DNA from: Alphaproteobacteria bacterium
Lineage (GTDB): Bacteria; Pseudomonadota; Alphaproteobacteria; Rhizobiales; JAJFHC01
Length of the DNA stretch: 64,000 nucleotides
Direction: 5' to 3'
NCBI GenBank assembly: GCA_021775805.1
Contig: JAJFHD010000011.1
Coordinates: forward strand, 110,887-174,886
Made by a program: the position numbers and the translations under genes. Positions 35,457 to 52,325 of this stretch are shown piece after piece. The notes beneath the pieces were generated by a model that did not search any database, had not been told where the DNA came from, and saw only the letters and a list, made by a program, of their open reading frames with translations. Every line of letters begins with the position of its first letter. The first letter of the stretch is position 1.

Positions 35457-36410
35457 TTATCTCGTCAAACCACAGGCCTCGAATGCCGCCCGAGTGGTGG
35501 CTCGTTCTTCTCCGGTGAGCTGCAGCAGGGGACGTCTTACCGGACCGCCGACCTGGCCCAGCAGGTCCTGCCAGTATTTCTGATGGGCCTGGGGCTTGCC
35601 GCCCGGGCGGGTGGCTTTCAGCGCGTCGCGGACCGGGTCGAGGCTGGCGCTTACCGCGCGCGCTCTTTCGACATTGCCGGCCAGCGCCAGGTCGGTGTAT
35701 TCGCGCATGCGCTGGTCGGCTTTTGTCTGCAGCAGATAGGGTGGGGTTGAGCACAGATAGAGCTGCCAGCCGAGCTCGACGATGTTGTCGAGCCATTCGT
35801 GTTCGGCCGCCGTGCTGACGAGAATCCGGTCGCCGGCCAGCTTTGTGAGTTCGGCATACATGTCGCGGGGTACGCTGTACTTGATGGCGACAATGTTGGG
35901 CAGATCGGCGACGCGCGAGCACAGTTCCGGACTCATGAGATAGCCGCTGTCGGGATGGCTCCACATGGCGATGCCGATGTCGACCTGCTCGGAGATATGG
36001 CGATAATACTCATAGACCGTGTCGTCGACGTCGGACAGGAAATGCAGGATCGGGGCGTGGACGACGATGTAGTCGGCGCCGATGTTCTGGGCGTGGCGGG
36101 CGAGGTCGATGACCGTGTCCAGGTTCTGGTCGGAGCATGACATGATCGTACCGGAGGCATCGCCGGTTTCTTCCACGGCAATCTCGAAGGTGCGTTTGCG
36201 TTCTTCGATCGACATGGAAAAGAATTCGCCCTGCTTGCCGGAGATGAACAGGCCGTCGAGTTTCAGGTCGTCGATCCAGTGCCGAATGTTGGCGCGAAAG
36301 CCGTCCTCATCGATTGTGAGGTCGGGATTGAACGGTGTCAGAGCGGCCGCCCAGATGCCCTTCATGTTTCGTCGCGAGTAGGCCTTGGCGTCCGGTTTGC
36401 TGTACTTCAT
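35457..36410 (-). CDS. Dihydrodipicolinate synthase (DapA/NAL)-family aldolase
   Basis: ALTPF, G..GEF.SMS.EERK, PNIVAIKYS (Schiff-base Lys). The GTTGE motif is altered to GKQGE, so this is not a true DapA. Confidence 0.85.
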   Translation of the reverse strand: MKYSKPDAKAYSRRNMKGIWAAALTPFNPDLTIDEDGFRANIRHWIDDLKLDGLFISGKQGEFFSMSIEERKRTFEIAVEETGDASGTIMSCSDQNLDTVIDLARHAQNIGADYIVVHAPILHFLSDVDDTVYEYYRHISEQVDIGIAMWSHPDSGYLMSPELCSRVADLPNIVAIKYSVPRDMYAELTKLAGDRILVSTAAEHEWLDNIVELGWQLYLCSTPPYLLQTKADQRMREYTDLALAGNVERARAVSASLDPVRDALKATRPGGKPQAHQKYWQDLLGQVGGPVRRPLLQLTGEERATTRAAFEACGLTR

Positions 36411-38617
36411 GGTTCCGTTTTTTCCTTTTTGGCAGAACGTATCGCCTGCCAGATAGTCTCGCTTGTCAACGGCATTTGCAGGTCTTCGACACCGAGCGGC
36501 TGCAAGGCATCGATTGCCGCATTCAGGATGGCCGGCGGCGCGCCGATCGTGCCGGCCTCGCCAATACCCTTTGCGCCGAGCGGATTGAAGGGGGCCGGCG
36601 TCTCAATCTTGTCCAGCGTGATCGGTGGCATGTCGGTCGCCCGGGGCAGGGCATAGTCCATCAGCGAGCCGGTCACAAGCTGGCCCTGGTCGTCGTAGAC
36701 GATGCGCTCCATCATGGCCTCGCCAAGACCCTGGGCAATGCCGCCGACAATCTGGCCTTCCGCCAGCATCGGGTTCACGATGACGCCGGCGTCGTCCACG
36801 CACCAGATATGTTCAACCACAAGAACGCCGGTTTCAACATCGATGCTGACGACGGCAATGTAACATCCAAACCCCCAGGCCTCGGAAGATGTTTCAAAGA
36901 TGGCGCTACCCTCAAGCGGCGCCGAGAGGCTTTCGGCGATGCCGGTCCAGGAGTTGCCGACATCTGCCCGGCCGATCAGATCGTTTGCGGCGGCATGAAC
37001 CGCACTGCCGCCGATTGCTGTGCTGCGGCTGGCCAGCGCGCCGATTCCGGCCGGGCAGGTCTGGGTGTCCCCATGCAACACCGTTATGACGTCCGGGGTG
37101 ACGCCGAGCACATCTGCTGCGATCTGGGCGTAGGCGGTTTCGCGGGCCTGGCCCTGCGCGCTCGATCCGGTCATGAGGGTGAACCGGCCGTCATTTTCCA
37201 GCCGGATGCGCGCACTTTCCCAGCCTCTGCCGCTCGGCTCGACATAGCAGGATACACCGATACCGACATGCTCGCCCCGTGCCCGCCGGTCAGCCTGTTC
37301 GCGGCGCAGTTGTTCGTAGCCACTCAGGGCACAGGCCTTGTCCAGGGTTTCGATATAGCGGCCTGAATCGAGCTTGACATCGTCGCTTCGTTTGAGCGGG
37401 AACCGGTGGCTGGCCACCAGATTCCGTCGCCGGAAAGCCACCGGATCGAGGTTGCAGGCGCGGGCTGCCTTGTCGACCAGGCGTTCCATGAGCATGGCGG
37501 CTTCGGGCCGGCCGGCGCCACGATAAATACCGACCGGGCCTGTGTTCGACAGATGTGCGCTGGTCGACGAGGAGACGATGTCGACATCATAGGGCCCGGG
37601 CAGGATGCGGCCTGCGTTCCAGGCCGGCACTGCCGCGCTGAAGGGCAACCAGTGCCCCAGGGGTGTCTCGACAGATGCCCGGAGGGCGTCAATGTATCCG
37701 GTCGAGGAGAATGCCAGCTGTCCCTGCGCCTCGCCGCCGCGTCCATGGGTGGCGGCAAGCAGATCCTCGCTGCGCGAGGATATCCATTTTACGGATCGCT
37801 TGAGCTTGAAGGCAGCCCAGGCCACAAGAATGTCCTCGGGGTACAAAGACGCCTTCATGCCGAACGCGCCACCGACATCACAGGCTGTCACCCTGATCCG
37901 GTGTTTCTCGATGCCGATGATATGCGACAGGTCATCGCGGGCGCGGTGCGGGGTCTGGGTTGAAAGCCGGATATGCAGGGTGGCCTCAGCCGCGTGCCAG
38001 GACGCATGGATGCCGCGGGGCTCGAGCGGGTTTGGGGCGAGGCGCGGGTGGCGGAGCGATACGGAAACGATGTAATCGGCGTTCTCGAACACCGACCGGT
38101 TCCGGCCGGTTGTCCAGCTTTGTTCGAGAACTTTATTGTCGGGGACGGAGTCAAACAGATCCCCGGCGCCTGCGGATCCGACCAGGCCCAGCACGGGCTC
38201 GAGGGGGGCGTAACCGACCACTACGGTTTCGGCGGCATCCGCTGCCATCGCACGGGTGCGGGCCAGAACCGCTGCCACCGGTTGCCCGACGGCAAACACT
38301 TTTTGCCGGGCCAGAATTAGTGTATCCGGGCATGCCATGGCGTCAAAAATTTCGTTCACACCGGGGCCCTTCAGACGGTGCACATCATCGCCTGTGATGA
38401 CCTTGACGACGTCTGGATGTGATTGGGCCGTTGAAACATCCATGCTTGTGATGCGCGCGTAAGCGTGAGGACTCCTGACGAAGGCGACATGAACGCACTC
38501 TTCATCGGTGATGTCGTCGGCAAAGCGGCCCTGCCCAAGGACGAGACGTCCGTCCTCGCGCCGGATCTGGCCCATGCCAATCCAGCGCGGTATCGTGTCG
38601 TCCCTTTTCTCGGTCAT
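36407..38617 (-). CDS. Xanthine dehydrogenase-family molybdopterin large subunit (CoxL form II-like)
   Basis: RREDGRL, RSPHAYARI, DVGGAFGMK, IYRGAGRPE, GQIVGGIAQGLG, GAKGIGE. Confidence 0.92.
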   Translation of the reverse strand: MTEKRDDTIPRWIGMGQIRREDGRLVLGQGRFADDITDEECVHVAFVRSPHAYARITSMDVSTAQSHPDVVKVITGDDVHRLKGPGVNEIFDAMACPDTLILARQKVFAVGQPVAAVLARTRAMAADAAETVVVGYAPLEPVLGLVGSAGAGDLFDSVPDNKVLEQSWTTGRNRSVFENADYIVSVSLRHPRLAPNPLEPRGIHASWHAAEATLHIRLSTQTPHRARDDLSHIIGIEKHRIRVTACDVGGAFGMKASLYPEDILVAWAAFKLKRSVKWISSRSEDLLAATHGRGGEAQGQLAFSSTGYIDALRASVETPLGHWLPFSAAVPAWNAGRILPGPYDVDIVSSSTSAHLSNTGPVGIYRGAGRPEAAMLMERLVDKAARACNLDPVAFRRRNLVASHRFPLKRSDDVKLDSGRYIETLDKACALSGYEQLRREQADRRARGEHVGIGVSCYVEPSGRGWESARIRLENDGRFTLMTGSSAQGQARETAYAQIAADVLGVTPDVITVLHGDTQTCPAGIGALASRSTAIGGSAVHAAANDLIGRADVGNSWTGIAESLSAPLEGSAIFETSSEAWGFGCYIAVVSIDVETGVLVVEHIWCVDDAGVIVNPMLAEGQIVGGIAQGLGEAMMERIVYDDQGQLVTGSLMDYALPRATDMPPITLDKIETPAPFNPLGAKGIGEAGTIGAPPAILNAAIDALQPLGVEDLQMPLTSETIWQAIRSAKKEKTEP

Positions 38618-38847
38618 CGACGGAACTGGCTATCCTTGAAGTTTGGCGACAGGGACCGGGACGGTCAAAACGGCTCGGAGCTCAGCGTAGGGGACCATTT
38701 TCCGACAATATCTACGACAGCTCAATAAAAATGGCGGCAAGCCGATATGGTGAAATTGCATACCGTGGGCGGGCCGTCGCGTTGTTATAAGAACTCAGGC
38801 AGGCCGGTGGGGCCTGTTACGGGCAATCGGACGTGAAAGGGTAGGGA

Positions 38848-39645
38848 ATGTTGAGACTTGCAATCGTTGGACACGGAGCGATCGCCCGGTATGTGGCGCG
38901 GGCCCTGAAGAATGACCCTTCGGTCCGGATTGCCTATGTGCTGTGTCGGGACGGCCGCGAGCCGGCCGCCCGCGATGCGATCGGCGGCGCAGTGGAGGCT
39001 GTGACCTCGGTCAGCCAGATCACCGGTGATGTTGACGTGGCGGTGGAATGCGCGGGCCACGGAGGTTTGATTGCCCATGGGCCCGGATTTCTGGAACAAG
39101 GTGTCGATGTCATCACGGTGTCGGTCGGCGCGCTCGCCGATCCTGCCGTTGCCGACATCCTCACCGATGCCGCCAAGCGCGGCAACGCCCGCCTGGAACT
39201 CGTGCCGGGTGCCCTGGGCGGCATCGATGCTCTGGCCGGGGCGCGTTGGGGCGGTCTTGACTCGGTGACTTATGAAGGGCGTAAACCGCCGTTGAGCTGG
39301 GTTGGAACGCCAGCCGAAGACCAGACCGATCTTGCCTCGCTTACGGAAGCGTTCGAGCATTTCAACGGATCTGCGCGGGATGCCGCGACGCGCTATCCCA
39401 AGAACGCAAACGTGGCTGCTGCTGTGGCCATCGCCGGACTCGGACTGGATGACACCATGGTTAGACTGATTGCCGATCCGTCGGTGAAGGGCAACCAGCA
39501 TGTGGTGATCGCCGAGGGTACCTTTGGCCGGTTTCGGTTTGAGATCGAAGGCAAGGCCCTGCCGGAGAACCCACGCACGTCGGCCCTGGCTGCTATGAGC
39601 CTGCTGCGGGCGATCGGCAACCGGGGATCCGGGATTGCTACGTGA
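38848..39645 (+). CDS. nadX: L-aspartate dehydrogenase (NadX) family
   Basis: VG.GAI, ECAGH, SVGALAD, GALGGIDAL, RKPP, YPKNANVAA, NPRTS.LAA. Confidence 0.88.
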   Translation: MLRLAIVGHGAIARYVARALKNDPSVRIAYVLCRDGREPAARDAIGGAVEAVTSVSQITGDVDVAVECAGHGGLIAHGPGFLEQGVDVITVSVGALADPAVADILTDAAKRGNARLELVPGALGGIDALAGARWGGLDSVTYEGRKPPLSWVGTPAEDQTDLASLTEAFEHFNGSARDAATRYPKNANVAAAVAIAGLGLDDTMVRLIADPSVKGNQHVVIAEGTFGRFRFEIEGKALPENPRTSALAAMSLLRAIGNRGSGIAT

Positions 39646-39665
39646 AGTGGAACCCGCTTGGAGAG

Positions 39666-40637
39666 TTACAGTATGCCCTGGGCAACCATGTCGGAGGCAG
39701 TTTTGCGCAGGCATGCCAGGAAGGCCTGTGCGGCGGGTGACAAGCCTTCCTCGCTGCGCAGGCAGACGCCGACGGGCTGTGATGTATCGCTGACTTCAAT
39801 CGGCAGTACTCTGAGCAGTCCGCGTTCAATGTCATCCTGCACGACGTGGTAAGGCCAGACACCGATCATGTCGGTGTTCACGATGAGATACCGATTGGTC
39901 AGATAGGAAATCGATTCCAGCGGATTTGCCGGAGGCGCTACGCCCTGGTCGTGAAACAGCTTGTCGATCTGGCGCCGTAACGTTGTGTCGGGAGGCGGCA
40001 ATATCCACTCCCGTGCGCTCAAAATCGCCTCAGGCGTTACAGCGTCCTGTTTGGCCAGCGTGTGCCCGGAACGGGCAACCACGCACATTGGCTCATCGTA
40101 GAGGGGCTCCTGCACAAGATCCTGTCGGTAGCGATATTGCGGCAGCCGTCCGACGACCAGATCCAGCTTGCCGTCATGCAATGCCGGAATCAGCCGCTCG
40201 TTGGTACCTTCCGTGACGGCAATTGAAACGTTGGGCCGTTGTTCGCGGATTCGGGCAATGGTGGCGGGGAGAATTATCGCGGAAGCAGCCAGCAGAGTGC
40301 CGACGACAATACGGCCGCCGGTGCCTTCCACGAGGTCGTCGAGTTCCTGGGCCGCATGGGACAACTGAGCCAGAACCAATCTGCCGTGGCGGATGAGGGC
40401 GGTTCCGTAGCTGGTGGGAAAGGCCCCGCGATTGGTGCGTTCGAATAAGGTGACCCCAAGGTCGATTTCCAGATCCTGTAGAAGCTTGGTGGCCGTCGGC
40501 TGGGAGATACTGAGTACCTTTGCCGCATGCAGCAGGCTGGCATGATCGCAGATGGCAATCACCAGGCGAAGCTGCTTGAGCTTCATCCGGGTAAGTATTC
40601 GGTCGGAGATTTCGATTCCTGATCGTGTGCCGGACAT
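39666..40637 (-). CDS. LysR-family transcriptional regulator
   Basis: LKQLRL...SLLHAA..L.ISQP..TK.LQDLE..LG..LFER, LDLVVGRL. Confidence 0.94.
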   Translation of the reverse strand: MSGTRSGIEISDRILTRMKLKQLRLVIAICDHASLLHAAKVLSISQPTATKLLQDLEIDLGVTLFERTNRGAFPTSYGTALIRHGRLVLAQLSHAAQELDDLVEGTGGRIVVGTLLAASAIILPATIARIREQRPNVSIAVTEGTNERLIPALHDGKLDLVVGRLPQYRYRQDLVQEPLYDEPMCVVARSGHTLAKQDAVTPEAILSAREWILPPPDTTLRRQIDKLFHDQGVAPPANPLESISYLTNRYLIVNTDMIGVWPYHVVQDDIERGLLRVLPIEVSDTSQPVGVCLRSEEGLSPAAQAFLACLRKTASDMVAQGIL

Positions 40638-40786: not shown

Positions 40787-42334
40787 CTACTGGCACTGAT
40801 TGTTGGCCTTCAACGTCCGGTACTGATAACCGCAGACCCGTCTGAGTTTGAGGTCGTTTTGTCTCCAGCACTTGCCGCAACCCGTGCCGACGGTCTTGCT
40901 CGACTGCTTCTTGCGGGGCTTCTGTCTTTTTTTGAGTTTGGTTTTCGCCCGGCTCTTTTGCTTTGTTGTTGGACTGGCCGTCTCAGGCTCGGTGATCCGG
41001 CCGGCGTGCGCCAACACGGCGTTGCGGCTACCGGGGCCCCATTTCCCGTCGATCCGGGCGCGGTATAGCCCCAGCGCCTTGAGGCGCTGCTGGACTGCCT
41101 TGAGGAAATCCGGATCCGTCCGGGTATCCGTCCGGGTCAATGCCTCTATGGCCGGTTCATGGTTCAAAGCGACGGCATCGAGGATATGGATCGATGCCTC
41201 CGTCCAGCTTCGGCCCACACCCAGGCCACGGTAATACAAGGTGCCAAGACGGTACTTCGCCGCCGCGTGGCCTCGATTGGCGGCCTCGCGGTACCAGTGT
41301 GCCGCCTTCAGATAGCTCTGGACGACGTCGTCGCCGATCTCGTAACGGCGGCCCAATGCCGTCATCTGCGATGCCGTCTCCGGCGCCGAACCCTCGGTGA
41401 GGGCGGCGTGCTGCGTTGATTTTGCCGGCTGGTCTACCGGTTCCTCCAGCGCGAAGCTTTCATTGGTGGCCGCCCGCTGTGTCGATTGCGACAACAGGTC
41501 TTCAGAGGTGGTCGGCGCCAGGGCCGCCAATTCCAACTTCTTGGGCTTTTCTGACTTGGCGACCAGCGTTTCCTTACCATTGGTGGCTTCCGGCACGAAA
41601 TAGAAATCGCCGCGCAATGAAGACTCTTCCCAAGGTGTCTGGGCACCACCGGTCACTTCTTCCACGACGACCCGGACCCGCTTGAAAACATGTTCGACTG
41701 CAAGCCCAGGCAGCAGAATCGTCTCGGCCAAAGCTGTCGTAAACGGCGAGTTGCCGCCCCGACCGTCAAACGCGACCTGACCCGGTGCTGCGGAAAACGC
41801 GATCAAGGATCCGGAAACCGCCGTGATCCGGGCGAGGCCACGCCGATCCGAACGGGTTACGCCCTTGAGCGGGTTGTTGCGGCAGGCATCGAGGATGACA
41901 ATGTTCAGCCCGTTGCCTGCAGTTTCCATCTGACGCAATACATCGGAGGCACTGATTGCTTCAAGGTCGAGATCGGCTTCGTCGTCAATCTGTGCCGCCA
42001 GAGGGATGAGGTAGTTGACGCCCTGTGCCTGAATGCCATGACCGGCAAAGTAGAACAGGCCGACCGCATCCTTGCCGGCCCGTCTCAGGGCCCTGCCGAA
42101 TTTCTTGACGGCGCGGCCCATCTCGCGGCGGTCGACGTCGATCGCGGCGACAACTTCAAAACCGACCTCATTCAATGTCGAGGCAATCAAAAGGGCATCA
42201 TTTTTGGGATTGCTCAAACGCGAGATCGACTCGTAGTCCGAGTTGCCGATAACCAGAGCGACGCGCTTCGCGGCATGGGCAATGCTGACCGAAGCAATCA
42301 AAATCGCCAGGCTGAGAATGATCCTCAAGTTCAC
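40787..42334 (-). CDS. Secreted caspase-like (C14) protein with Sel1 repeats and a peptidoglycan-binding-like domain
   Basis: Signal peptide, KRVALVIGNS, YFAGHG, ILDACRNNP, QTPW. Sel1-like LGRRYEIG..AAHWYREAA..G..AKYRLG.LY..G.GV. PG_binding-like VQQRLKALG.Y...IDG.WGP.S..A. GTG start at 42334. Confidence 0.88.
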   Translation of the reverse strand: MNLRIILSLAILIASVSIAHAAKRVALVIGNSDYESISRLSNPKNDALLIASTLNEVGFEVVAAIDVDRREMGRAVKKFGRALRRAGKDAVGLFYFAGHGIQAQGVNYLIPLAAQIDDEADLDLEAISASDVLRQMETAGNGLNIVILDACRNNPLKGVTRSDRRGLARITAVSGSLIAFSAAPGQVAFDGRGGNSPFTTALAETILLPGLAVEHVFKRVRVVVEEVTGGAQTPWEESSLRGDFYFVPEATNGKETLVAKSEKPKKLELAALAPTTSEDLLSQSTQRAATNESFALEEPVDQPAKSTQHAALTEGSAPETASQMTALGRRYEIGDDVVQSYLKAAHWYREAANRGHAAAKYRLGTLYYRGLGVGRSWTEASIHILDAVALNHEPAIEALTRTDTRTDPDFLKAVQQRLKALGLYRARIDGKWGPGSRNAVLAHAGRITEPETASPTTKQKSRAKTKLKKRQKPRKKQSSKTVGTGCGKCWRQNDLKLRRVCGYQYRTLKANNQCQ

Positions 42335-42423
42335 CGTCTTACGCCAAATTTGCCGAGAGCTTTGCGTGCAATTTGTAATCACGTTCACATAATGGCACAT
42401 AATCGATAACAACCAAAATTCGC

Positions 42424-43437
42424 ATGTCGTTTCAACTCGGCATCCTGCAGGCAAATCTGACACACATGTTCGATCGAGCAATCTTCTGGCTGGTAAACGT
42501 TTCTGCTTATCTCCGGCACTTTCGCAACATCATGCTGTTCAGGCGCGCGGTCGGCTATTTCCCCAACGTCGCTGTGCCCAGGCGGTACAATGAAAAAATG
42601 TTGTGGCGGAAGATCTTTGATCATAATCCGCTGTTCGTGACGTTCTCCGACAAACTGGCTACCAAAAAACTCTGGGCTGACCGGCGCCCGGATTTAGCTA
42701 CGGCGGCAGTTCTTTGGACCGGCTGTGACGCCGCGCACATTCCGGGTGATCTGTTCAAGCGGCCCGTGGTGATCAAGGCAAATCACGGCTCCGGTATGAA
42801 CACAGCGATCGACGATTTGCATGACCCCCAATCGCTGCCGGTGGATCGCATCAACAGTTGGCTGGACTGGGACTTTGGGAAACATCAGTTTGAGTGGGCG
42901 TACGAACAGGTCGACAGGCGACTTTTCTTGGAAGAGCTCATTGCTTGTTCGAAGGAATTTCCGGTCATTGATATTTCGATTCACGCCTGCGACGGTCATG
43001 GCGTGTTCGTGGAGGTGATCTGTGCAAACAAGACAGATGACCAACAAAAGGCCTATTTCAAAACGGACGGGACACGTTGGAGGGAAATTGAGAGAAGCAG
43101 TATCGATGGCGATGACGATTCAAGTTTACCCGAGACGTTTTCGATACCCGCAAACTATCGGAAGGCTCTGGATCACGTACGCGATCTGAGTTCCGGTATA
43201 GACTACGCGCGGTTCGATTTTCTGTCGGTTGCGGACCGTCTATTCGGCGGGGAAATCACTGTCTATCCGAATTCCGGCCTGACACCGCACGCTCCGTTTA
43301 TCACGTACAACAAATATCTCACCGAACACTGGGATTTGTTAAAGTCATGGTTTCTGACCCGCCGGCAGCCTTGGATGATTCAAGTCTATGCCAGCGCTTT
43401 GCGCCGGCAGTTGGCTCGGGAAACCGGACGACATTGA
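42424..43437 (+). CDS. TupA-like ATP-grasp amidoligase
   Basis: P..YNEKMLWRK..D......SDK, VIKANHGSG, FLEELI, YARFDFL....FGGEITVYPNSG. Confidence 0.85.
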   Translation: MSFQLGILQANLTHMFDRAIFWLVNVSAYLRHFRNIMLFRRAVGYFPNVAVPRRYNEKMLWRKIFDHNPLFVTFSDKLATKKLWADRRPDLATAAVLWTGCDAAHIPGDLFKRPVVIKANHGSGMNTAIDDLHDPQSLPVDRINSWLDWDFGKHQFEWAYEQVDRRLFLEELIACSKEFPVIDISIHACDGHGVFVEVICANKTDDQQKAYFKTDGTRWREIERSSIDGDDDSSLPETFSIPANYRKALDHVRDLSSGIDYARFDFLSVADRLFGGEITVYPNSGLTPHAPFITYNKYLTEHWDLLKSWFLTRRQPWMIQVYASALRRQLARETGRH

Positions 43438-43472
43438 ACAGGGTGTCAAACGTGGCCGACAGTGATCCATCC

Positions 43473-44636
43473 ATGAGACGCCGACTGGTCATTGGCCAGG
43501 TTTGTCACGGCAGCCTGGGGGGCAGTTCGCGGGTGGCCTGCCGGCTTGCCAACGCCCTTGCCCGGCGGCGCCACCGTGTTCACGTTTTTTCTCGCGAGAT
43601 CCTGCCCTGGGCAATGGGCCCGGATGTCCATCAACATGCCTGCCCGAACATGACGCCCTGTGACCCCGGTTCTCTTTGCCTCGACTGGCCAGAAGGCGAC
43701 CGGACTGCCTTTGCGCACATGCTGACAGTATGGCTGACGCGCGAGCGCTTCGACGTTCTGCATTTTCATTACGTTCACCCGTTTGCCGGAATCGTCCGCC
43801 AGGTTGCGGAAAGCCTGGGCGATCGTGCGCCGGTTCTGGTCGGGACACTCCATGGCACCGATCTTACCCAATGCCTTGACAACACCGCTGAGCTTGCGTT
43901 GCTGAGCCGCGATCTTGCCGCAATCGACGAACTGACGACCGTGTCGGAACACATGCAGACGCTGTCCATGCGACTGATGCGGCAGAATCGGGCTGTCCGC
44001 GTGATGCCGAATTTCATTGAGGACACGTGGCCGCAACCGGTTCGACGATCCACTCAGCTAGCGCCAACCCGTCAGAAACCAGGATTTCTTCATGTCTCGA
44101 ATTTCCGGGCGGTCAAGGATGTCGAGTTGCTGGCAAGGCTGTTTCTGCAGATATATCAGCAGACAGATGCCGAACTCTGGCTTGTGGGGGACGGCCCGGG
44201 CTTGCCGGCGTTAAGGCGGTCGTTCGACCGATCACCCGCCAAGGCGGCCGTTCGTTATCACGGTGCGATTGCGGACCCGGCACCGTATTTCGAACAGGCC
44301 ACGGCTCTGTTGTCGACCAGCCGCCAGGAGAGTTTCGGTCTGGCGGTACTTGAAGCGATGGCAAGCGGGACCGTCGCGGTGGCAACCGCAGTAGGCGGTG
44401 TACCGGAACTGGTCGAGGACGATGTCACGGGCATTCTCTTTCATCCAATCGACCTGGATGTGACGGTTGCACGGATATTATCTCTGCTGGACACGCCGGC
44501 CGAACTGGAAGCCATGCGCGCCCGTGCCTTCCAGCGGACAGAGCGGTTGCGGGAGGCGCAGGTGATTGGCCTCTACGAGGATCTTTACCTGCGAACCGCC
44601 CGAAGCCCGGCCGACCAACTGGGCGCTATAGCCTGA
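43473..44636 (+). CDS. BshA-like GT4 glycosyltransferase (N-acetyl-alpha-D-glucosaminyl L-malate synthase-like)
   Basis: IGQVCHGSLGGS, DVLHFHY..P, TLHGTDLT, HVSNFRAVK, ESFGLAVLEAMASG match BshA signatures. An alternative GTG start lies at 43452. Confidence 0.8.
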   Translation: MRRRLVIGQVCHGSLGGSSRVACRLANALARRRHRVHVFSREILPWAMGPDVHQHACPNMTPCDPGSLCLDWPEGDRTAFAHMLTVWLTRERFDVLHFHYVHPFAGIVRQVAESLGDRAPVLVGTLHGTDLTQCLDNTAELALLSRDLAAIDELTTVSEHMQTLSMRLMRQNRAVRVMPNFIEDTWPQPVRRSTQLAPTRQKPGFLHVSNFRAVKDVELLARLFLQIYQQTDAELWLVGDGPGLPALRRSFDRSPAKAAVRYHGAIADPAPYFEQATALLSTSRQESFGLAVLEAMASGTVAVATAVGGVPELVEDDVTGILFHPIDLDVTVARILSLLDTPAELEAMRARAFQRTERLREAQVIGLYEDLYLRTARSPADQLGAIA

Positions 44637-45769
44637 TGCGCGCCCTGATTGACCTGCAGGCGTCCCGCGCGGGCAGGCTTTTGCTTGAAGACTCGATGAT
44701 CTTTGACGATCCGTCAGCGCTTCTGGCATGCCTTCGAGCACCGCGTCGCGATACCGGCACTCAAGGCGGTCCCAACAACCGGCCTGTGTATGTCCACCAG
44801 CAGGCCTATCTCGACTACAGGTCGTCGGTGGTCGCAAAAATGTTGGCTTTGCGTGGTCTTCATGACCGGTCGATGGATGTACAGGCTGACTTCATCTGGA
44901 TCGATACCGACCGGGCGGGATCGGACAAACTCGGTCTGCGCCTCTATCTGCCTGGACGCCATGGCAAAGTCCCGATACGGTTTGCGCCAAGCGGTTGCGA
45001 CCGGCTTGAGTCCCGGTTTATTGCGCTGGATCCTGCTGTCGTGCGTCGCGCAATGAACCGGATGAAGCAGATGGTCCACCATTTGCCGGGCGCACGAAAG
45101 GAGTTACTTGCACGGTTTGACATATTGCGTCCGGTGCTTGAAACCGAAGGTTCCCTGACGAAACTCAGTCGTGCCCTCTCGGATTTTCTGTTTGATGAGG
45201 TCCTTTCGTTCAAACCCCGGCCGGTGCTGGTCTCCAGTCTGATCGACGCCGGCGTTTTGAATGACGTTCTGGAGAAAATCCTGAACCGGCAGCGGGCGTT
45301 CGTCGATGCCGTCAATATACGCATTCGGCACCTGCAATCGTCTGATATCGCACCTCAGTTAAAACCGCTTCCTGACGATTACCTGCCCCTTTTCATGCCC
45401 TGCCCGGCCGATGGCAGACGTCTGCGCCTGCGTCTGGAAATCGACGGAGCGACAAAACTTGCCTGCGCCACGGACAGCGCCGGGGAACAGCACAGCTTCG
45501 AGTTGGGGCGAACCGATCTTTCACTGCAAACCTTGAGCGGGCAGGTTCAATGGAGTCCCGACATTTCGTTGCCCATGCTTGTCAATTGTCATTACAGTGG
45601 CATGGTGGCTGGAAAAAGCTCCGCACTCTATATGATGGTTTTCGGCCCGGTGATGCAAAGGGTATTGGAACTGGATCCGATACCCGTTTTTGTGCCGTCC
45701 AGTTGGGATGTCTTTCCGGGTCAGTTTGACAGTCTGTTGTGCGCGTATCTGTCCGGCAATCGGATTTAG
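44636..45769 (+). CDS. Uncharacterised protein, putative divergent and shortened BshC-like ligase
   Basis: Coupled to bshA-like and upstream of bshB1-like. VYVHQQAYL......K, FIWIDTD, YLPLF and WSPDISLP..AGKSSALY are weakly colinear with the BshC motifs GQQAGL..GPLY..K, FW.A.EDHD and FS.NV..RP..AGPGE..Y. Confidence 0.5.
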   Translation: MRALIDLQASRAGRLLLEDSMIFDDPSALLACLRAPRRDTGTQGGPNNRPVYVHQQAYLDYRSSVVAKMLALRGLHDRSMDVQADFIWIDTDRAGSDKLGLRLYLPGRHGKVPIRFAPSGCDRLESRFIALDPAVVRRAMNRMKQMVHHLPGARKELLARFDILRPVLETEGSLTKLSRALSDFLFDEVLSFKPRPVLVSSLIDAGVLNDVLEKILNRQRAFVDAVNIRIRHLQSSDIAPQLKPLPDDYLPLFMPCPADGRRLRLRLEIDGATKLACATDSAGEQHSFELGRTDLSLQTLSGQVQWSPDISLPMLVNCHYSGMVAGKSSALYMMVFGPVMQRVLELDPIPVFVPSSWDVFPGQFDSLLCAYLSGNRI

Positions 45770-45804
45770 TCGGGCAACCAACGGAAAGGGACGGCTGGTT
45801 TCAG

Positions 45805-46545
45805 ATGACTATTGACCTTCTGGCATTTTCTCCTCACCCCGACGATGCGGAAATCGGTTGCGGCGGCCTGCTCCTTCTGGCCGCCCGGCAAGGCCTGAGC
45901 ACCGCAATCGTCGATCTGAGCGAGGGGGAAAAGGCAACGCTGGGGACACCGGCCGTCCGCCGTCGGGAGAAGATGGCGGCCGGAGAAATGCTCGGTCTGA
46001 CGGCACGGCGTGGGCTCGAACTGCCCGACACCCAAATCGGACTCGATCCAAATCACGAAATCGACGTCGTCGCCTGCCTGCGGGAATTGCGGCCACGGAT
46101 GGTTCTTGCGCCGAATTTTGAAGATCGTCATCCCGATCATGAGGCAGCGGCGCGCCTGATCAAACGGGCGGCATTCTTTTCCGGCGTTGCAAGTGTTGGT
46201 ACCGGCGCGCCGCACCGGATTGAACGAATGCTCCACTACTGCGTTCACAGTCCCTTCACGCCCAGCCTCGTGTTTGACGTGTCCAGTGTCTGGCCTGAAT
46301 ACACGAAGGCCGTGGAAGCCTACGAGAGCCAGTTCTGTCAACTTGGCGAGAAGGACGACGAAGCCACGCCTCTGAGCAATGGAGATTTCCTGAAAACCCT
46401 TGAGGCGCGGGGCAGGCATTATGGCGCCATGATCAACACAGAGTTCGGCGAGCCCTACTATTCTTCGTCGCCGCTATCGCTCGACTCGCCTGCCGCTTTG
46501 TTTCCATCAGAAAAATCAAGAACAGCGTACGGATCGTTTTCCTGA
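45805..46545 (+). CDS. BshB1-like PIG-L/LmbE family N-acetylglucosaminide deacetylase
   Basis: DLLAFSPHPDDAEIGCGG, VDLSEGE..T.GT...RRRE, DRHPDH, AYESQF, EARGRHYG, FGEP. Confidence 0.85.
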   Translation: MTIDLLAFSPHPDDAEIGCGGLLLLAARQGLSTAIVDLSEGEKATLGTPAVRRREKMAAGEMLGLTARRGLELPDTQIGLDPNHEIDVVACLRELRPRMVLAPNFEDRHPDHEAAARLIKRAAFFSGVASVGTGAPHRIERMLHYCVHSPFTPSLVFDVSSVWPEYTKAVEAYESQFCQLGEKDDEATPLSNGDFLKTLEARGRHYGAMINTEFGEPYYSSSPLSLDSPAALFPSEKSRTAYGSFS

Positions 46546-46754
46546 GATTATGGTGCTGCGAACTTCGGGCACTCGGTAGTATTGACATGAAGTTGAGCAC
46601 AACCGGTCAACAACTCAAATCGCTTCGCTCGAACCCGGGCTGGAGCCTTGCCGGCAGCGAGGTCAACCGATTGAGAAACGTCGTGACGGTCTCCATCGGC
46701 ACTGGAAAACTGTCCTTCGCTGCGGCGAACAATTGCTGAAGAAGGATCCAAGCC

Positions 46755-46991
46755 TTGAAAGTTTCAGAGATTCCCAAGACCAAGGGCGCAAAGGTCATGA
46801 CCGTGTCACCCGACGACAGCATTGCCGATGTGGCAAGGACGATGACCCAGCGGCGAATTCGGCACCTACCTGTGCAATACGGCGCGAAGCTTGTGGGTAT
46901 CATCAGTGTCGGCGATGTGGTCAAGCATCGCCTCGATGAGTTGCCGCTGGAAGCAAATGTCCTGCGCGACTATGCGGTTGGCAGTCATTGA
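46755..46991 (+). CDS. Single-CBS-domain protein, apparently an internally deleted CBS pair (possible pseudogene)
   Basis: 78 aa, TTG start. The first-repeat N-terminus (VSEI.KTKG.KV.TVSPDDSI) runs directly into the second-repeat core (MT.RRIRHLPV...LVGIISVGDVVKHRLDEL..E...LRDY). Confidence 0.6.
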   Translation: MKVSEIPKTKGAKVMTVSPDDSIADVARTMTQRRIRHLPVQYGAKLVGIISVGDVVKHRLDELPLEANVLRDYAVGSH

Positions 46992-47206
46992 CTTGCGATC
47001 GGGGGGGGGGCGCTGTTCGCCGGGTATTCTGCTGCCGGTCGGTCTCGATCAGCATGTCATCTACGGTAGTGCACCGGGCATTCCGCTGGGGATGATCCTC
47101 AAGGGACGTTGCCTTTTGTGTTGTGCATGGTATTTGGCACAGTACTACTTTGTGTGTTTTCCGGCTTGGCGACAGGGCTGCCGGATCTGCTGACGGGATC
47201 GGGCGT

Positions 47207-48397
47207 ATGAACAACAATACCTCTCAGGAAAACAGCGGCCCGGCCGGTCCGCTTGACGACCTGCTTGTGATCGACATGTCGAGAGTCCTGGCCGGACCGT
47301 ACGCGACGATGGTGCTTGCCGATCTCGGCGCCCGCGTGATCAAGGTCGAAGTGCCGGGAACCGGCGATGATGCTCGCCATTTCGGCCCCTTCATCAACGG
47401 CACGTCGGCCTATTTCATGTCTCTGAATCGGGGCAAGGAGAGCATCGCCCTTGATCTCAAGGCCGATGCCGATCGTGACCTGTTCGAAGGCCTTGTGGCC
47501 AGGGCGGATGTGCTGGTCGAGAACTACCGTGCCGGCACCATGGACAAGCTTGGGTTCGGCTGGGACCGTCTGCAGGAACTGAATCCGAAACTCGTCTATG
47601 CGGCGATTTCCGGATTCGGACAAACCGGTCCCTACAAGGAACGGGCGGCCTATGACATGGTGGTCCAGGGGATGGGCGGGATCATGAGTGTCACCGGTCA
47701 CCCGGATGCCCCGCCTACGCGGGTCGGGACATCTGTTGGCGACATTACGGCGGGACTGTTTGGGTTGTCGGGAATTCTGGCCGCAGTCATCGAACGCCAG
47801 CGCACCGGCCGGGGCACGATGGTCGATGTCGGCATGCTCGACTGTCAGGTGGCGATCCTTGAAAACGCGATTGGGCGCTATCTGGCCGAGGGCGTCGTCC
47901 CGGGTCCGCTGGGTGCGCGGCATCCCTCCATCACACCGTTCGAAGCATACCACGCGAAGGATGGATATGTGATCATCGCGGCAGGCAACAAGTCGCTCTT
48001 CGACAAGCTGTGTTCGGCCCTCCAACGGCCTGACCTGGCGTCGGATCCGGACTTTGAAACCAACGAGCTCAGAACACGCAACCACGAGAAACTCAAAGAT
48101 CAGATCGAGAAACGGCTGGCAGAGAGGCCGGTCGAGGAGTGGCTGGACATCATCGGTGCCGCCGGCGTGCCATGCGGGCCAATAAACAATGTCGAGCAGG
48201 TAGTGAACGACAGCCATGTTCTGGCACGCAACATGATCGTTTCTTCGAACCACGTCACGGCCGGGCCCGTGCGTATGGCTGGAAACCCCATCAAACTCTC
48301 CGGCCATGAAGATCCGCTTGAACGGGCGGCGGCGCCGGAACTGGACGGCAACCGGGACGCGGTGCTGCGCCTGTTGCGGGACAGGGACCCGGTGTGA
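47207..48397 (+). CDS. Class III (CaiB/BaiF) CoA-transferase
   Basis: LVIDMSRVLAGPYATMVLADLGARVIKVE.PG.GDD.R, NRGKESIALDLK, DVLVENYR.G, SVGD. Confidence 0.93.
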   Translation: MNNNTSQENSGPAGPLDDLLVIDMSRVLAGPYATMVLADLGARVIKVEVPGTGDDARHFGPFINGTSAYFMSLNRGKESIALDLKADADRDLFEGLVARADVLVENYRAGTMDKLGFGWDRLQELNPKLVYAAISGFGQTGPYKERAAYDMVVQGMGGIMSVTGHPDAPPTRVGTSVGDITAGLFGLSGILAAVIERQRTGRGTMVDVGMLDCQVAILENAIGRYLAEGVVPGPLGARHPSITPFEAYHAKDGYVIIAAGNKSLFDKLCSALQRPDLASDPDFETNELRTRNHEKLKDQIEKRLAERPVEEWLDIIGAAGVPCGPINNVEQVVNDSHVLARNMIVSSNHVTAGPVRMAGNPIKLSGHEDPLERAAAPELDGNRDAVLRLLRDRDPV

Positions 48398-48620
48398 TTT
48401 CAGTTTTCTGAACCCGATCGATACAGAAAATCATAAGACAAGCGTTTCGCGTTCGATCATACTCATCACCAGATTTCGAGGCTACACGATGTCCTCAAAA
48501 ACTGTCATGTACGTGCTTGACACGTTCATCTTCAGAAATGCAACGCACAAGGACGACAGTTAAGACGGACGGTAAAGCCGCCGCACTGGTGGCGCAGCGC
48601 GTTCGTCCACGGCGACTCGC

Positions 48621-49796
48621 CTACTCAAACGGCAGCCCGACGTAATTTTCTGCAAGTGTGGTCTTGGCCGCCCTGGAGCCGATCAGGTAATCAAGCTCGG
48701 CGCGCTGGATATTGAGATCGAAGGCGCTTGCATCGGGAAAATTGTGCAGCAGGGAGGTCATCCACCATGAAAACCGTTGCGCTTTCCAGATACGTTTCAA
48801 ACAGGATTGAGAGTACCGGTCGAGGGGACCGCTATCGGCGGATCGGTAAAAAGCTGTCAGTGCATCATACAGGACACGGACATCCGCCGCGGCCAGATTG
48901 AGACCCTTGGCGCCGGTCGGGGGCACGATGTGGGCGGCATCGCCGGCAAGGAACAACCTGCCATGGCGCATGGGTTCGGCAACAAAACTGCGCATGGGTG
49001 TCACACTTTTCTCAAGCGAAGGTCCGGTTTCCAGCCGGTTCGTGCAATCCCCGCCCAGCCGGATCTGCAATTCTTCCCAGATTCTGTCGTCAGGCCATTC
49101 TTCCAGATCCTCATCCGGGCGGCACTGGATGTACAAACGGCTGACGGTTTTCGATCGCATGCTGAACAGGGCAAAACCGCGGTCATGCCGGGCATAAACG
49201 ATCTCGTCACTCACGGGCGGCGTGTTGGCCAGAATGCCGAGCCAGGCAAACGGGTAGACTTTTTCATAGGTCTTCAAGATCGGATCGGGAATTGATTTGC
49301 GGCAGACACCATGGAAACCGTCGCATCCGGCGATAAAGTCACAGACGACCTCGTGTTGTTGTCCATCCTTGTGGTAACGGACGCGTGGTGTATCCGTCTC
49401 AATATCATGCAGGCTCACGTCCAAGGCATCAAACACGACCCCGCGGCCCATCTCGTCGTGTGTCCGGTTGAGATCCTTGGTAATCTCCGTCTGACCGTAA
49501 ACCATGACAGTGCTGCCGCCGGTCAACTCGCGCAGGTCTATACGGTGACGGGTCCCGTCGACGCTCAATTCGATGCCGTCGTGAACCAGACCATTGCGGT
49601 CCATGTTGGCGCCGGCCTGTGCCTGATGGATCAGGTCGACGGTGCCCTGCTCGAGAACACCCGCCCGAATGCGGCCTTCGACATAGGCGCGATCGCGCCT
49701 TTCCAGAACGATGGCATCTATGTCCGACAGATGAAGCAGTCTGGACAGGAGAAGCCCGGATGGACCCGCTCCAATGATGGCAACCTGGGTACGCAT
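48621..49796 (-). CDS. pobA: 4-hydroxybenzoate 3-monooxygenase
   Basis: MRTQVAIIGAGPSGL, RIRAGVLEQG, GCDGFHG, LAGDAAHIVPPTGAKGLNLA, RFSWWMT, LAENYVGLP. Confidence 0.96.
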   Translation of the reverse strand: MRTQVAIIGAGPSGLLLSRLLHLSDIDAIVLERRDRAYVEGRIRAGVLEQGTVDLIHQAQAGANMDRNGLVHDGIELSVDGTRHRIDLRELTGGSTVMVYGQTEITKDLNRTHDEMGRGVVFDALDVSLHDIETDTPRVRYHKDGQQHEVVCDFIAGCDGFHGVCRKSIPDPILKTYEKVYPFAWLGILANTPPVSDEIVYARHDRGFALFSMRSKTVSRLYIQCRPDEDLEEWPDDRIWEELQIRLGGDCTNRLETGPSLEKSVTPMRSFVAEPMRHGRLFLAGDAAHIVPPTGAKGLNLAAADVRVLYDALTAFYRSADSGPLDRYSQSCLKRIWKAQRFSWWMTSLLHNFPDASAFDLNIQRAELDYLIGSRAAKTTLAENYVGLPFE

Positions 49797-49970
49797 ATTG
49801 TGATTCTCCGGCGTGAAATCGGTGCCCTGTGCGGCGCAAAGTCAATATGCCGAGCTTTACCCCAAGACGTCTACCGGCGCAGGGTGCGGTTTTCCGGAAA
49901 AGATATCAGTTTGACGTCAGCAGTCGCCGGGCGGCGCCGCACAATTTCCGCTTGGTGGAAGTCGATTTAG

Positions 49971-49994
49971 TCAGTATTATGCGCATAGTGCTGA
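49971..49994. promoter_or_regulatory. Palindromic operator candidate (MarR?) in the pobA / 3HB6H divergent region
   Basis: TCAGTATTATGCGCATAGTGCTGA, a 24-bp inverted repeat with 2 mismatched pairs. Confidence 0.45.
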
Positions 49995-50036
49995 GCAAAT
50001 CGCCACTATGGATCCGTCAAACTATTGAATATGGGC

Positions 50037-51233
50037 ATGACCAACGACAATCCGATTTTGATTTCAGGGGGAGGTATCGGCGGTTTTGCTGCGGCTCTTG
50101 CCCTGAGCCGGGAGGGATACCGGGTTCGTCTGCTGGAGCAATCAGACACTTTTTCCGAAGTCGGTGCAGGCATTCAGCTTGGACCCAACGTCTTCAGAAT
50201 GTTCGACCGGCTGGGCGTGACAGAAGCGGTCAACGAGCTCGCCTGTTTTCCCGATGCTCTGGTCATGATGGATGGATTGAGCGGTGAACAGATTACCAGA
50301 ATCCCGCTCGACGGGGATTTCCGGAAGCGCTTCGACAAACCCTATGGCGTCATTTTTCGACCGGACTTGCACACGGTGCTGATCGATGCCTGCGAAGCGT
50401 CGCCGTTGATTAGCCTGTCGGTCAACCAGAAAGTGGAACGCTTCGAGGAAACACACGACGGTGTGCTGGCCCATACCAGGGAGGGACGCTCTCACGCCGG
50501 CGCGGCGTTGATTGGCGCCGACGGTCTTTGGTCTCGGGTCCGCGAGCAGATCGTCGGCGACGGCCCGCCGAACGTATCCGGTCACATCGCCTATCGGGCC
50601 GTGCTGCCGATTGACGAGGTGCCGGAACATCTGCGGATCAATTCAGCGGTCCTGTGGGCAGGGCCGAAAACCCACCTGGTTCATTATCCCCTTCGCCGTG
50701 GCGAGCTCTTCAACATCGTGGCTGTGTTCCACAGCGACCGCTACGAAGAAGGCTGGGACAGCTACGGCGATCCGGCTGAGCTCACGGAAAGGTTTGCCGG
50801 TCAACATGACAGCGTGCTGCAGCTGTTGGACAAAATCGAGTCGTGGCGCATGTGGGTGCTGTGCGACCGTGAACCGGTCAAGGCATGGGGCAAGGGCCGG
50901 GTGACCCTGCTCGGCGATGCGGCCCACCCGATGCTTCAGTATCTCGCGCAAGGGGCATGCATGGCGACCGAGGATGCGGTCTGCCTGGCCAGCCGGGTTG
51001 TTCACCACGACGGTGACTTCGAGACGGCCTTCGAGTCCTATCGAGACGCCCGCTACCTGCGCACCGGAAGGGTCCAGCTTACTGCCCGTTTGTACGGCGA
51101 CATCTATCATGCGGCTGGCGTTACGGCCGAGTTGCGCGACATAATGCTGAACGGGCGCACGCCCGATCAGGCCTATCAGGGTGTCTCCTGGCTCTACGGC
51201 GGCATTGACGACGATGGCGCCCAGATAGTGTGA
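50037..51233 (+). CDS. 3-hydroxybenzoate 6-monooxygenase-like flavin monooxygenase
   Basis: GGGIGG, EVGAGIQLGPN, GADGLWS, SGHIAYRAV, HLVHYPLR, GDAAHPMLQYLAQGA. Directly upstream of gtdA. Confidence 0.88.
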   Translation: MTNDNPILISGGGIGGFAAALALSREGYRVRLLEQSDTFSEVGAGIQLGPNVFRMFDRLGVTEAVNELACFPDALVMMDGLSGEQITRIPLDGDFRKRFDKPYGVIFRPDLHTVLIDACEASPLISLSVNQKVERFEETHDGVLAHTREGRSHAGAALIGADGLWSRVREQIVGDGPPNVSGHIAYRAVLPIDEVPEHLRINSAVLWAGPKTHLVHYPLRRGELFNIVAVFHSDRYEEGWDSYGDPAELTERFAGQHDSVLQLLDKIESWRMWVLCDREPVKAWGKGRVTLLGDAAHPMLQYLAQGACMATEDAVCLASRVVHHDGDFETAFESYRDARYLRTGRVQLTARLYGDIYHAAGVTAELRDIMLNGRTPDQAYQGVSWLYGGIDDDGAQIV

Positions 51234-51266
51234 CCCGGCATTTTCGATTTCAGAGGGAGAACCAAC

Positions 51267-52325
51267 ATGACACACGGCGCCCCGGCACAAACAGATGAAC
51301 GCCGCGCCTTCTATAACCAGATTGACGGATTTTCCATGACGCCGCTATGGGAGGTGCTCGATGCTCTGGTGACGCCGGTGCCGGCGAGCCCGTGCCTGCC
51401 GCACCTGTGGCGTTACGACGATGCCAGGCCTCATCTCATGAAGTCGGGGGAACTGATCACGGCGCAGGAAGCGGTGCGCCGTGTGCTGGTGCTGGAGAAC
51501 CCGGGCATGCGCGGCGATTCCTGTGTGACGCGGTCTCTCTATGCCGGGCTCCAGCTCATATTGCCCGGCGAAGTGGCACCGGCCCATCGCCATACCCAGT
51601 CGGCGCTGAGGTTTGTGGTCGAAGGGCGCGGCGCCTATACGGCTGTCGATGGCGAGCGGCGGACGATGGAGCCGGGCGATTTCATCATCACCCCGTCGTG
51701 GACCTGGCACGATCACGGCAACCCGTCGGACGAGCCGGTGATCTGGCTCGATGGGCTCGACATTCCCGTGGTCCGCTTTCTGGACGCCGGTTTTGCAGAA
51801 AACCTTCCCGACGACACGCAACCGGTGACACACGACGAGGGGCGCTCCCTGACACGTTATGCCAATAACATGGTGCCTGTGGGCTACGAACCGGAGTCGC
51901 TGACGTCACCGATATTTGCCTACCCCTACGCCCAGTCGAGGGCGACATTGCATGATATGGCGCGTCATGAAAATCCCGATCCCGCCTATGGCTACAAGAT
52001 GCATTTCATCAATCCGGTAACAGGCGGATATGCCATGCCGACCATGGCCACATTCATGCAGTTTCTGCCTGCCGATACTCAGACCAGCACATATCGATCG
52101 ACGGACGGGACCGTATACAGCGTGGTCGAGGGAGGTGGGGAGGCCGAGGTCGGAGAGGGAGACGACAGGGTCGTCATGGAGTTCGGGCCGCGCGATCACT
52201 TCGTGGTGCCGTCATGGGCCCCCAACCGTATCAAGGTGCGCGAAGATACCGTCCTGTTCAGTTTTTCGGACCGGCCGATGCAGAAGGCACTGGGACTCTG
52301 GCGCGAGGACCGCGGCAATGCCTGA
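51267..52325 (+). CDS. gtdA: Gentisate 1,2-dioxygenase
   Basis: PLWEVL, RRVLVLENPG, LYAGLQLILPGEVAPAHRH..SALRF, WTWHDHGN, WLDGLDIP. Confidence 0.95.
   Translation: MTHGAPAQTDERRAFYNQIDGFSMTPLWEVLDALVTPVPASPCLPHLWRYDDARPHLMKSGELITAQEAVRRVLVLENPGMRGDSCVTRSLYAGLQLILPGEVAPAHRHTQSALRFVVEGRGAYTAVDGERRTMEPGDFIITPSWTWHDHGNPSDEPVIWLDGLDIPVVRFLDAGFAENLPDDTQPVTHDEGRSLTRYANNMVPVGYEPESLTSPIFAYPYAQSRATLHDMARHENPDPAYGYKMHFINPVTGGYAMPTMATFMQFLPADTQTSTYRSTDGTVYSVVEGGGEAEVGEGDDRVVMEFGPRDHFVVPSWAPNRIKVREDTVLFSFSDRPMQKALGLWREDRGNA

Follow-up and report, generated by a model that had tools for sequence, protein, structure and literature searches.

A cassette of four genes resembling those of bacillithiol biosynthesis is present in the genome of an alphaproteobacterium (Alphaproteobacteria bacterium, order Rhizobiales; GenBank assembly GCA_021775805.1). 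It lies in a 64,000-nucleotide (nt) stretch of contig JAJFHD010000011.1 (positions 110,887 to 174,886, forward strand), referred to here as the window, and encodes in order a TupA-type ATP-grasp ligase, a BshA-like GT4 glycosyltransferase, a short protein with an apparent BshC fold, and a BshB1-type deacetylase. We hold with moderate confidence that the cassette specifies a bacillithiol-type pathway yielding a decorated (amidated) bacillithiol, a second, specialised thiol beside glutathione. Its most interesting part is a short, previously unannotated BshC family and the repeated recruitment of ATP-grasp ligases.

Organization of the cassette

Four open reading frames (ORFs), described in the initial annotation as co-directional and tightly spaced, were confirmed on the + strand of the window at 42424-43437, 43347-44636, 44636-45769 and 45739-46545. 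The first gene (42424..43437, 337 amino acids, aa) encodes the ATP-grasp ligase. The GT4 ORF opens at 43347; since the alignment to the BshA model begins at ORF residue 49, its start is likely ATG 43473 or GTG 43452, of which the former, giving a 387-aa protein (43473..44636), is preferred. The spacing from the ATP-grasp gene to the GT4 gene is 14-35 nt. The stop codon of the GT4 gene and the ATG of the 377-aa gene (44636..45769) share one base, in TGATG. The deacetylase ORF opens with GTG at 45739, and its likely start is ATG 45805 (246 aa, 45805..46545), preceded by the stretch GGAAAGGGA; the gap from the 377-aa gene is 35 nt, or a 31-nt overlap with the GTG start. The same four-gene order recurs elsewhere, in five of 26 genome loci and one of 48 metagenome loci, and the core of three genes is found again in several phyla, so the arrangement is more than chance.

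BshA-like and BshB1-type enzymes

The GT4 protein aligns with the NCBIfam BshA model, TIGR03999, over model positions 3-372 of 375 and scores 204.4 bits, which misses the cut-off of 273.7; the next-best glycosyltransferase family reaches only 75 bits. GT4 domains are also found by Pfam, and the best sequence matches in the PDB are 2jjm, 3mbo, 5d00, 6n1x and 6d9t. The BshA motifs previously read in this gene (GGS, HY, HGTD and SNFRxVK) are all legible in the translation, as GGS, HFHY, HGTD and SNFRAVK. Furthermore, the protein keeps 67 of the 99 near-invariant columns of 15 neighbouring BshA proteins that score over the cut-off, including all motifs checked: GGS16-18, H97, TLHGTD125-130, S158, H207, SNFR209-212, VK214-215, E286, E294 and E312. 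It is classed here as BshA-like, a prediction from sequence: the earlier assignment to BshA stands as to the best family, by a wide margin (204 versus 75 bits), but not at the level of the equivalog cut-off.

The fourth protein passes the BshB1 model TIGR04001 of NCBIfam with 238.5 bits, against a cut-off of 182.5, over model positions 1-225 of 226, and scores 79.6 bits with the Pfam family PIG-L. It is the sole TIGR04001 match in the window's genome. In its motifs HPDD and HPDH, the residues H11, D14 and H112 (numbered from the M at 45805) are offset by one from His12, Asp15 and His113, which PMC5790435 quotes as the zinc ligands; a His/Asp/His set of this kind is that of the PIG-L fold. By the curated NCBI cut-off the protein is a predicted BshB1, a result in favour of the case made in the initial annotation.

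A short BshC-like protein

The 377-aa protein belongs to a family invisible to current sequence models. Searched against 5.8 billion proteins, it gave 52 matches, itself among them, all unnamed or hypothetical and without a Pfam domain. Among 1.84 billion cluster representatives, a profile matched 168 clusters at E<=0.001 (98 at E<=1e-30); the family is real but rare. The working alignment (A1) holds 39 of the 52 members, 13 partial or near-duplicate rows having been omitted (P0004, P0008, P0010, P0013, P0016, P0021, P0023, P0026, P0027, P0029, P0030, P0041 and P0047). The window protein has no Pfam or NCBIfam match, PF10079 and TIGR03998 included, and none of the 39 aligned members has a BshC match in Pfam at E<=1. 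The A1 profile against PDB sequences returned noise only, with a best E of 0.34 and no BshC. Distant relatives of 416-495 aa have no family assignment either, and an iterated search from distant members (A2) recovered only the family's own unannotated sister family of ~450 aa (34 proteins), leaving PF10079 unbridged.

The tie to BshC comes from structure, through stored ESM Atlas models (exact sequence) of two relatives of the window protein: P0036 (Chloroflexota; 35% identical to the window protein, predicted template modelling score, pTM, 0.85) and P0011 (labelled alphaproteobacterium; 54% identical, pTM 0.87). Outside their own family, the nearest structures are clusters with PF10079 (Rossmann-like_BshC) in 96-97% of members, matched with template modelling scores (TM) of 0.79-0.82 by query over 347-369 residues, and a cluster in which 49% of members carry PF10079, matched at 0.83-0.84 by query. 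The next matches, class I lysyl-tRNA synthetases, lie at TM ~0.6. By target the TM is only 0.56-0.65 on BshC models of 500-545 aa, with the short protein aligned along its whole length, which fits a protein that comprises the BshC Rossmann core without the C-terminal coiled coil. The sizes are 377 aa and, for the BshC sequence model, 529 positions. The two Atlas results are counted as one line of evidence because both are predicted models from the same family. On these models, the 377-aa protein appears to be a short BshC-like protein without the coiled-coil dimerisation domain. The BshC likeness suspected in the initial annotation is thus borne out at the level of fold (TM 0.79-0.84 for the two relatives) and not by a match to PF10079 or TIGR03998.

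The ~450-aa sister family (P0155, P0158, P0161, P0164, P0174, P0175, P0183, P0191 and P0197-P0227) shares the motifs GQQxYxDY and G(K/R)SSxxY with the short family and likewise has no Pfam or NCBIfam match. Two proteins join parts of the pathway, each either a true fusion or a gene-calling artefact: both contain a portion of the short BshC, joined in P0142 (575 aa) to a portion of BshB1 and in P0152 (417 aa) to the C-terminal end of the GT4.

Gene linkage and the absence of canonical BshC

Scanning one genome for each species yielded the 26 loci encoding the short family. Judged by the titles of their records, they are spread over Alphaproteobacteria, Chloroflexota (for the most part Anaerolineae), Zixibacteria, Actinomycetota, Thermodesulfobacteriota and single others; the family is not confined to alphaproteobacteria. 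With the window proteins as tblastn queries, a GT4 relative was found in 24 loci and a BshB1 relative in 20. In 20 of the 26, the short gene has both a BshA-type and a BshB1-type gene no more than 6 kb away, usually adjoining and co-directional, and several of the loci without both partners end at contig ends. Scoring of these neighbours left out the GT4s of L015 and L017 (merged ORF calls), L028 (a duplicate of L027) and two L038 fragments. The neighbouring GT4 exceeds the BshA cut-off in 15 of the 19 scanned (281-324 bits); the four under it are those of L018 (256.7 bits) and of L013, L014 and L016 (198-209 bits). Of 15 deacetylases beside the short gene, 13 exceed the BshB1 cut-off, both failures falling in one archaeal-labelled locus. 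Outside the alphaproteobacteria the short BshC gene stands beside GT4s over the BshA cut-off and mostly BshB1-passing deacetylases, with no ATP-grasp gene.

Canonical BshC (TIGR03998) was found neither in the window's genome, whose assembly is 98.9% complete with 7.9% contamination, nor in any of the 26 genomes that hold the short family; the model matched its positive controls in Bacillus, Thermus and Deinococcus. Two further genome samples also lacked it (0/31 and 0/61), which carries little weight because the sampled phylum is uncertain. The complementary occurrence of the short and canonical proteins is most simply read as sameness of function. Bacillithiol surveys, in the parts that define a complete pathway, require canonical bshC (PMC6282198, PMC12719100), and would therefore miss the lineages with the short protein. 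No literature on a short, alternative or missing BshC was found in a search that did not extend to survey supplements, which might list such genomes.

Among the window's kin the short family is patchy. It occurs in none of 40 same-family or same-order genomes and in one of 400 other genomes of the class, the DNA of which is that of locus L026. The L026 record, titled as a Candidatus Kuenenia metagenome-assembled genome (MAG), is identical over 12 kb to L096, which comes from a genome of the window's class, and in the tree it stands nearest to a Sphingomonadales MAG; the Kuenenia title is probably not the contig's true lineage.

In the non-alphaproteobacterial loci L020-L025, L027-L029 and L032-L038, the trio of BshA-type, short BshC and BshB1-type genes is often joined by three further genes: i) a ~1015-aa protein with PIG-L, NPCBM_assoc (NEW3) and cyclic nucleotide (cNMP)-binding domains, in 14 of the 26 loci; ii) a ~1300-aa fusion of FHA, indoleamine 2,3-dioxygenase (IDO), FAD/NAD reductase and cytochrome b5 domains, in 12 of the 26; and iii) a 153-aa CBS-pair protein, in five. 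Examples are at L037:1985-5881 and L037:7272-10319.

Two unrelated ATP-grasp ligases

The first cassette protein is a TupA-type ATP-grasp, as initially annotated: it matches PF14305 (ATPgrasp_TupA) at 43.5 bits against a Pfam cut-off of 25. Its residues K118, E157, E170, D260, R263, D265 and E277 are invariant in an alignment of 14 sequences (A3). The catalytic residues are thus conserved. In PMC11800379, the section on Campylobacter jejuni Cj1438 describes a C-terminal TupA-like domain that amidates the C6 carboxylate of glucuronate with ATP and serinol phosphate or ethanolamine phosphate. A preprint, in its treatment of the family, predicts that TupA-like ATP-grasps decorate surface polymers with amino acids and places them usually in polysaccharide loci (PMC12632600).

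Co-occurrence of the ATP-grasp gene with the other three, one of the points on which the initial annotation had rested its case, was found in six further loci. TupA-type orthologues lie directly upstream of the trio in L013-L017 (45-56% identity) and L042 (41%), the last being one of the 48 metagenome loci found by searching with the ATP-grasp. The other 47 (27-53% identity, many short) have no bsh-type gene by tblastn, and 11 of them, annotated with Pfam, have mixed neighbours (heme genes, GT2, asparagine synthase, glutamine synthetase).

In a maximum-likelihood tree with 27 rows of short BshC proteins, the seven TupA-linked rows fall into a single clade (support 99/98). L018 and L026 pair as its sister (100/99), and the joint clade has support 100/98. 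L018 and L026 lack a TupA-type gene; instead, they carry after BshB1 a gene of 372-374 aa (L018:7955-9073, L026:7922-9046), the two copies being 58% identical. This gene is not annotated as an ATP-grasp and belongs to a family of 36 proteins, one of them named by its source as a glutathione synthase/RimK-type ligase. The family was recognised only through its profile against the PDB (A4, 24 sequences): all 36 matches at E<=1 are ATP-grasp proteins by name, the best being PurD-like (1.8e-5), carbamoyl-phosphate synthetase (3e-5), RimK (1.5e-4) and D-Ala-D-Ala ligase (1.6e-3). Comparison of A4 with the TupA-type alignment by hhalign found no relation between them.

The other 18 loci have neither ATP-grasp family among their called ORFs, so that the trio without a nearby ATP-grasp is the commoner form (18 of 27 tree rows). 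The ATP-grasp is a lineage-specific add-on to the trio. Its double recruitment in one clade, from two unrelated families, argues that it belongs to the pathway there. Of the non-standard ligase set proposed in the initial annotation, the short BshC family is the main part. The GT4 is most divergent where the TupA-type gene is present (198-209 bits, versus 257 in L018 and 281-324 elsewhere), which would agree with a changed acceptor or with an intermediate that is amidated, and proves neither.

Proposed pathway

In the proposed pathway, the BshA-like GT4 would use UDP-GlcNAc to place N-acetylglucosamine (GlcNAc) on L-malate or a closely similar hydroxy acid, and the BshB1 enzyme would remove the acetyl group. 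The short BshC-like protein, in place of canonical BshC, would then attach an amino acid to the freed amine of glucosamine (GlcN), cysteine being assumed by analogy. The TupA-type ATP-grasp would add one further amide bond, likeliest at a malyl carboxylate through an acyl phosphate and an amine or amino acid; by analogy, the two malyl carboxylates are the obvious candidate sites. The first three steps are modelled on the established bacillithiol pathway as outlined in PMC5790435, and the fourth on the Cj1438 precedent in PMC11800379. Substrates, products, the part played by cysteine and the site of the ATP-grasp reaction are thus predictions, built on the observed families and folds of the four proteins, the linkage of their genes and the absence of canonical BshC.

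Several findings weigh against this pathway. At the level of sequence, the short protein shows no tie to BshC by PF10079, TIGR03998, the PDB profile or the iterated search, and the fold evidence comes from models of two relatives, not of the window's own protein. The GT4s of the window and its alphaproteobacterial orthologues fall under the BshA cut-off (198-209 bits), so malate is not secured, and may not serve, as the acceptor. Distant relatives of the ATP-grasp (27-40% identity) occupy unrelated contexts. The IDO-reductase fusion and the giant cNMP-binding PIG-L protein that accompany the trio in Chloroflexota-type loci hint at a use other than that of a plain thiol buffer. The window's genome has two glutathione synthetase matches over the cut-off (in an assembly with the contamination given above), no YpdA-type bacillithiol disulfide reductase over the cut-off (best 43 bits) and no bacilliredoxin match. 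The last is weak evidence, because the bacilliredoxin model matched Bacillus alone among the controls. Together these three leave a general redox-buffer role unsupported.

Glutathione synthetase is also over the cut-off in all five relatives with the four-gene cassette (G001-G005); in the alphaproteobacterial clade, the product of the trio would add to glutathione. Across the 26 holder genomes YpdA is over the cut-off in none. In five of them, with loci titled Anaerolineae or Anaerolineales, a YpdA-like gene comes near the cut-off (288-313 versus 339.9 bits), and none of five Anaerolineae holders tested, two of them with the YpdA-like gene, has glutathione synthetase over the cut-off. The near-cut-off YpdA-like genes and the lack of glutathione synthetase in the tested Anaerolineae suggest that the trio may supply the main thiol there.

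The overall reading of a bsh-type locus, advanced in the initial annotation, is supported in part: each computational test proposed there to refute it gave a result in its favour. It is amended in that malate is not secured as the acceptor, the non-standard ligase is mainly the short BshC family, which also occurs outside alphaproteobacteria, the ATP-grasp is an addition of one lineage, and the chemistry of the product (thiol or not, and its decoration) is a prediction.

Alternative explanations

The cassette might make ordinary bacillithiol, the ATP-grasp either helping the short BshC (e.g., by providing activated cysteine, for which canonical BshC would have another source) or being a functionally separate neighbour. 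This is unlikely. The BshA motifs are retained in the window's GT4, and the ATP-grasp-free trio is the commoner form. In addition, the discussion of BshC in PMC5790435 states that its reaction, in which GlcN-malate receives Cys, has never been reconstituted in vitro, and it may need another protein or an activated substrate. However, most loci and the classical bacillithiol producers lack the ATP-grasp, which rules it out as a general requirement. The presence of two unrelated ATP-grasp families in one clade suggests an added chemical step, not a shared helper, and the divergence of the GT4 is greatest precisely where the TupA-type gene is present.

A non-thiol product is also doubtful. In this case another amino acid would be placed on the GlcN-hydroxyacid to give a specialised aminoacyl glycoside (a solute, chelator or signal), which the ATP-grasp would extend. 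The short family lies beyond detection by any BshC sequence model, and its fold is that of class I aminoacyl-tRNA synthetases, lysyl-tRNA synthetase being its next structural match. The Chloroflexota-type trio is accompanied by the IDO-like dioxygenase fusion and by cNMP, FHA and CBS signalling domains, and a bacillithiol reductase over the cut-off is found neither in the window's genome nor in the 26 holder genomes. On the other side, the near-cut-off YpdA-like genes of the five Anaerolineae holders and the lack of glutathione synthetase in the five tested fit a thiol role there, and the complementary occurrence with canonical BshC is most simply explained by the same function.

That these are generic surface-polysaccharide genes (GT4, PIG-L and a TupA-type amidoligase) decorating a cell-envelope glycan is very improbable: the preprint's account of TupA-like ATP-grasps (PMC12632600) and a GT4 under the BshA cut-off would agree with it, but Pfam and NCBIfam scans found neither a flippase nor a polymerase, initiating transferase or export gene within the cassette or next to it, the deacetylase is BshB1 by the curated cut-off, the third gene has a BshC fold in the models of relatives, and in other phyla the GT4s of this trio score over the BshA cut-off.

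Surroundings of the cassette

The cassette is flanked by functionally unrelated genes (Pfam, NCBIfam), and in same-family genomes the flanking genes sit on separate contigs or replicons. Upstream, on the - strand at 40787-42481, is a divergent gene for a secreted-looking product with Peptidase_C14 (caspase), Sel1 and peptidoglycan-binding domains; it does not adjoin the cassette in other loci. Genes for aromatic-acid catabolism lie on both sides, at 36407-40637 and 47123-52325. They include a PcaQ-like LysR regulator, 4-hydroxybenzoate 3-monooxygenase, 3-hydroxybenzoate 6-monooxygenase, gentisate 1,2-dioxygenase, a family III CoA-transferase (downstream of the cassette) and a molybdenum hydroxylase large subunit.

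Directly 3' of the deacetylase gene is a small ORF (46740-46991, +) with a single CBS domain (PF00571, 47.9 bits). CBS domains are normally paired, so this ORF is possibly a remnant; it resembles the CBS-pair gene of the Chloroflexota-type loci only generically. A 19-nt direct repeat, 17/19 identical, brackets the cassette at 42311-42329 and 47085-47103. It is treated as chance, about 0.2 such pairs being expected per 8 kb by a rough estimate. A scan for promoters and terminators gave sites no more numerous than in shuffled sequence, and an Rfam scan gave nothing close to the gathering score.

Comparison with known systems and significance

The amidated-bacillithiol pathway proposed here follows the glycosylate, deacetylate and aminoacylate logic of the Bacillus subtilis-type BshA/BshB1/BshC enzymes, with a GT4 nearest to BshA, a BshB1-qualified deacetylase and a third protein of predicted BshC fold. 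In contrast to the B. subtilis pathway, this third protein falls short by ~150 residues, has no coiled-coil domain for dimerisation and escapes both PF10079 and TIGR03998; the genes form one operon with an ATP-grasp added; the GT4 is under the BshA cut-off; and the host has glutathione synthetase and no YpdA over the cut-off.

Extra steps on Cys-GlcN conjugates are described in portions of PMC6282198 and PMC12719100: acetylation by MshD in mycothiol and methylation by NmbA in N-methyl-bacillithiol. The mycothiol enzymes MshA-D and NmbA are thus precedents for the kind of lineage-specific modification after core steps that is proposed for the cassette. Whereas MshD and NmbA are an acetyl- and a methyltransferase, the extra enzyme here is an ATP-grasp ligase, which would convert a carboxylate to an amide. 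For such chemistry the C-terminal domain of Cj1438, a member of the same Pfam family, offers a proven case of ATP-dependent amidation of a sugar-borne carboxylate, as given in the Cj1438 section of PMC11800379. Cj1438 acts on capsule glucuronate and is fused to a GT2, whereas the cassette ATP-grasp stands alone beside bsh-type genes; the two are likened through their Pfam family.

We propose tentatively that the minimal BshC family supplies the last enzyme otherwise missing from lineages with BshA and BshB1 but no BshC (Chloroflexota and others), and that in alphaproteobacteria unrelated ATP-grasp amidoligases were twice recruited to the trio, giving a new amide-extended bacillithiol beside glutathione. 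A minimal BshC-like enzyme with its upstream enzymes, and in one clade an ATP-dependent ligase, is a small, defined gene set for the chemistry of BshC. If the proposal is true, the known range of bacillithiol-type compounds would be widened, and glutathione-using alphaproteobacteria may possess a second, decorated thiol.

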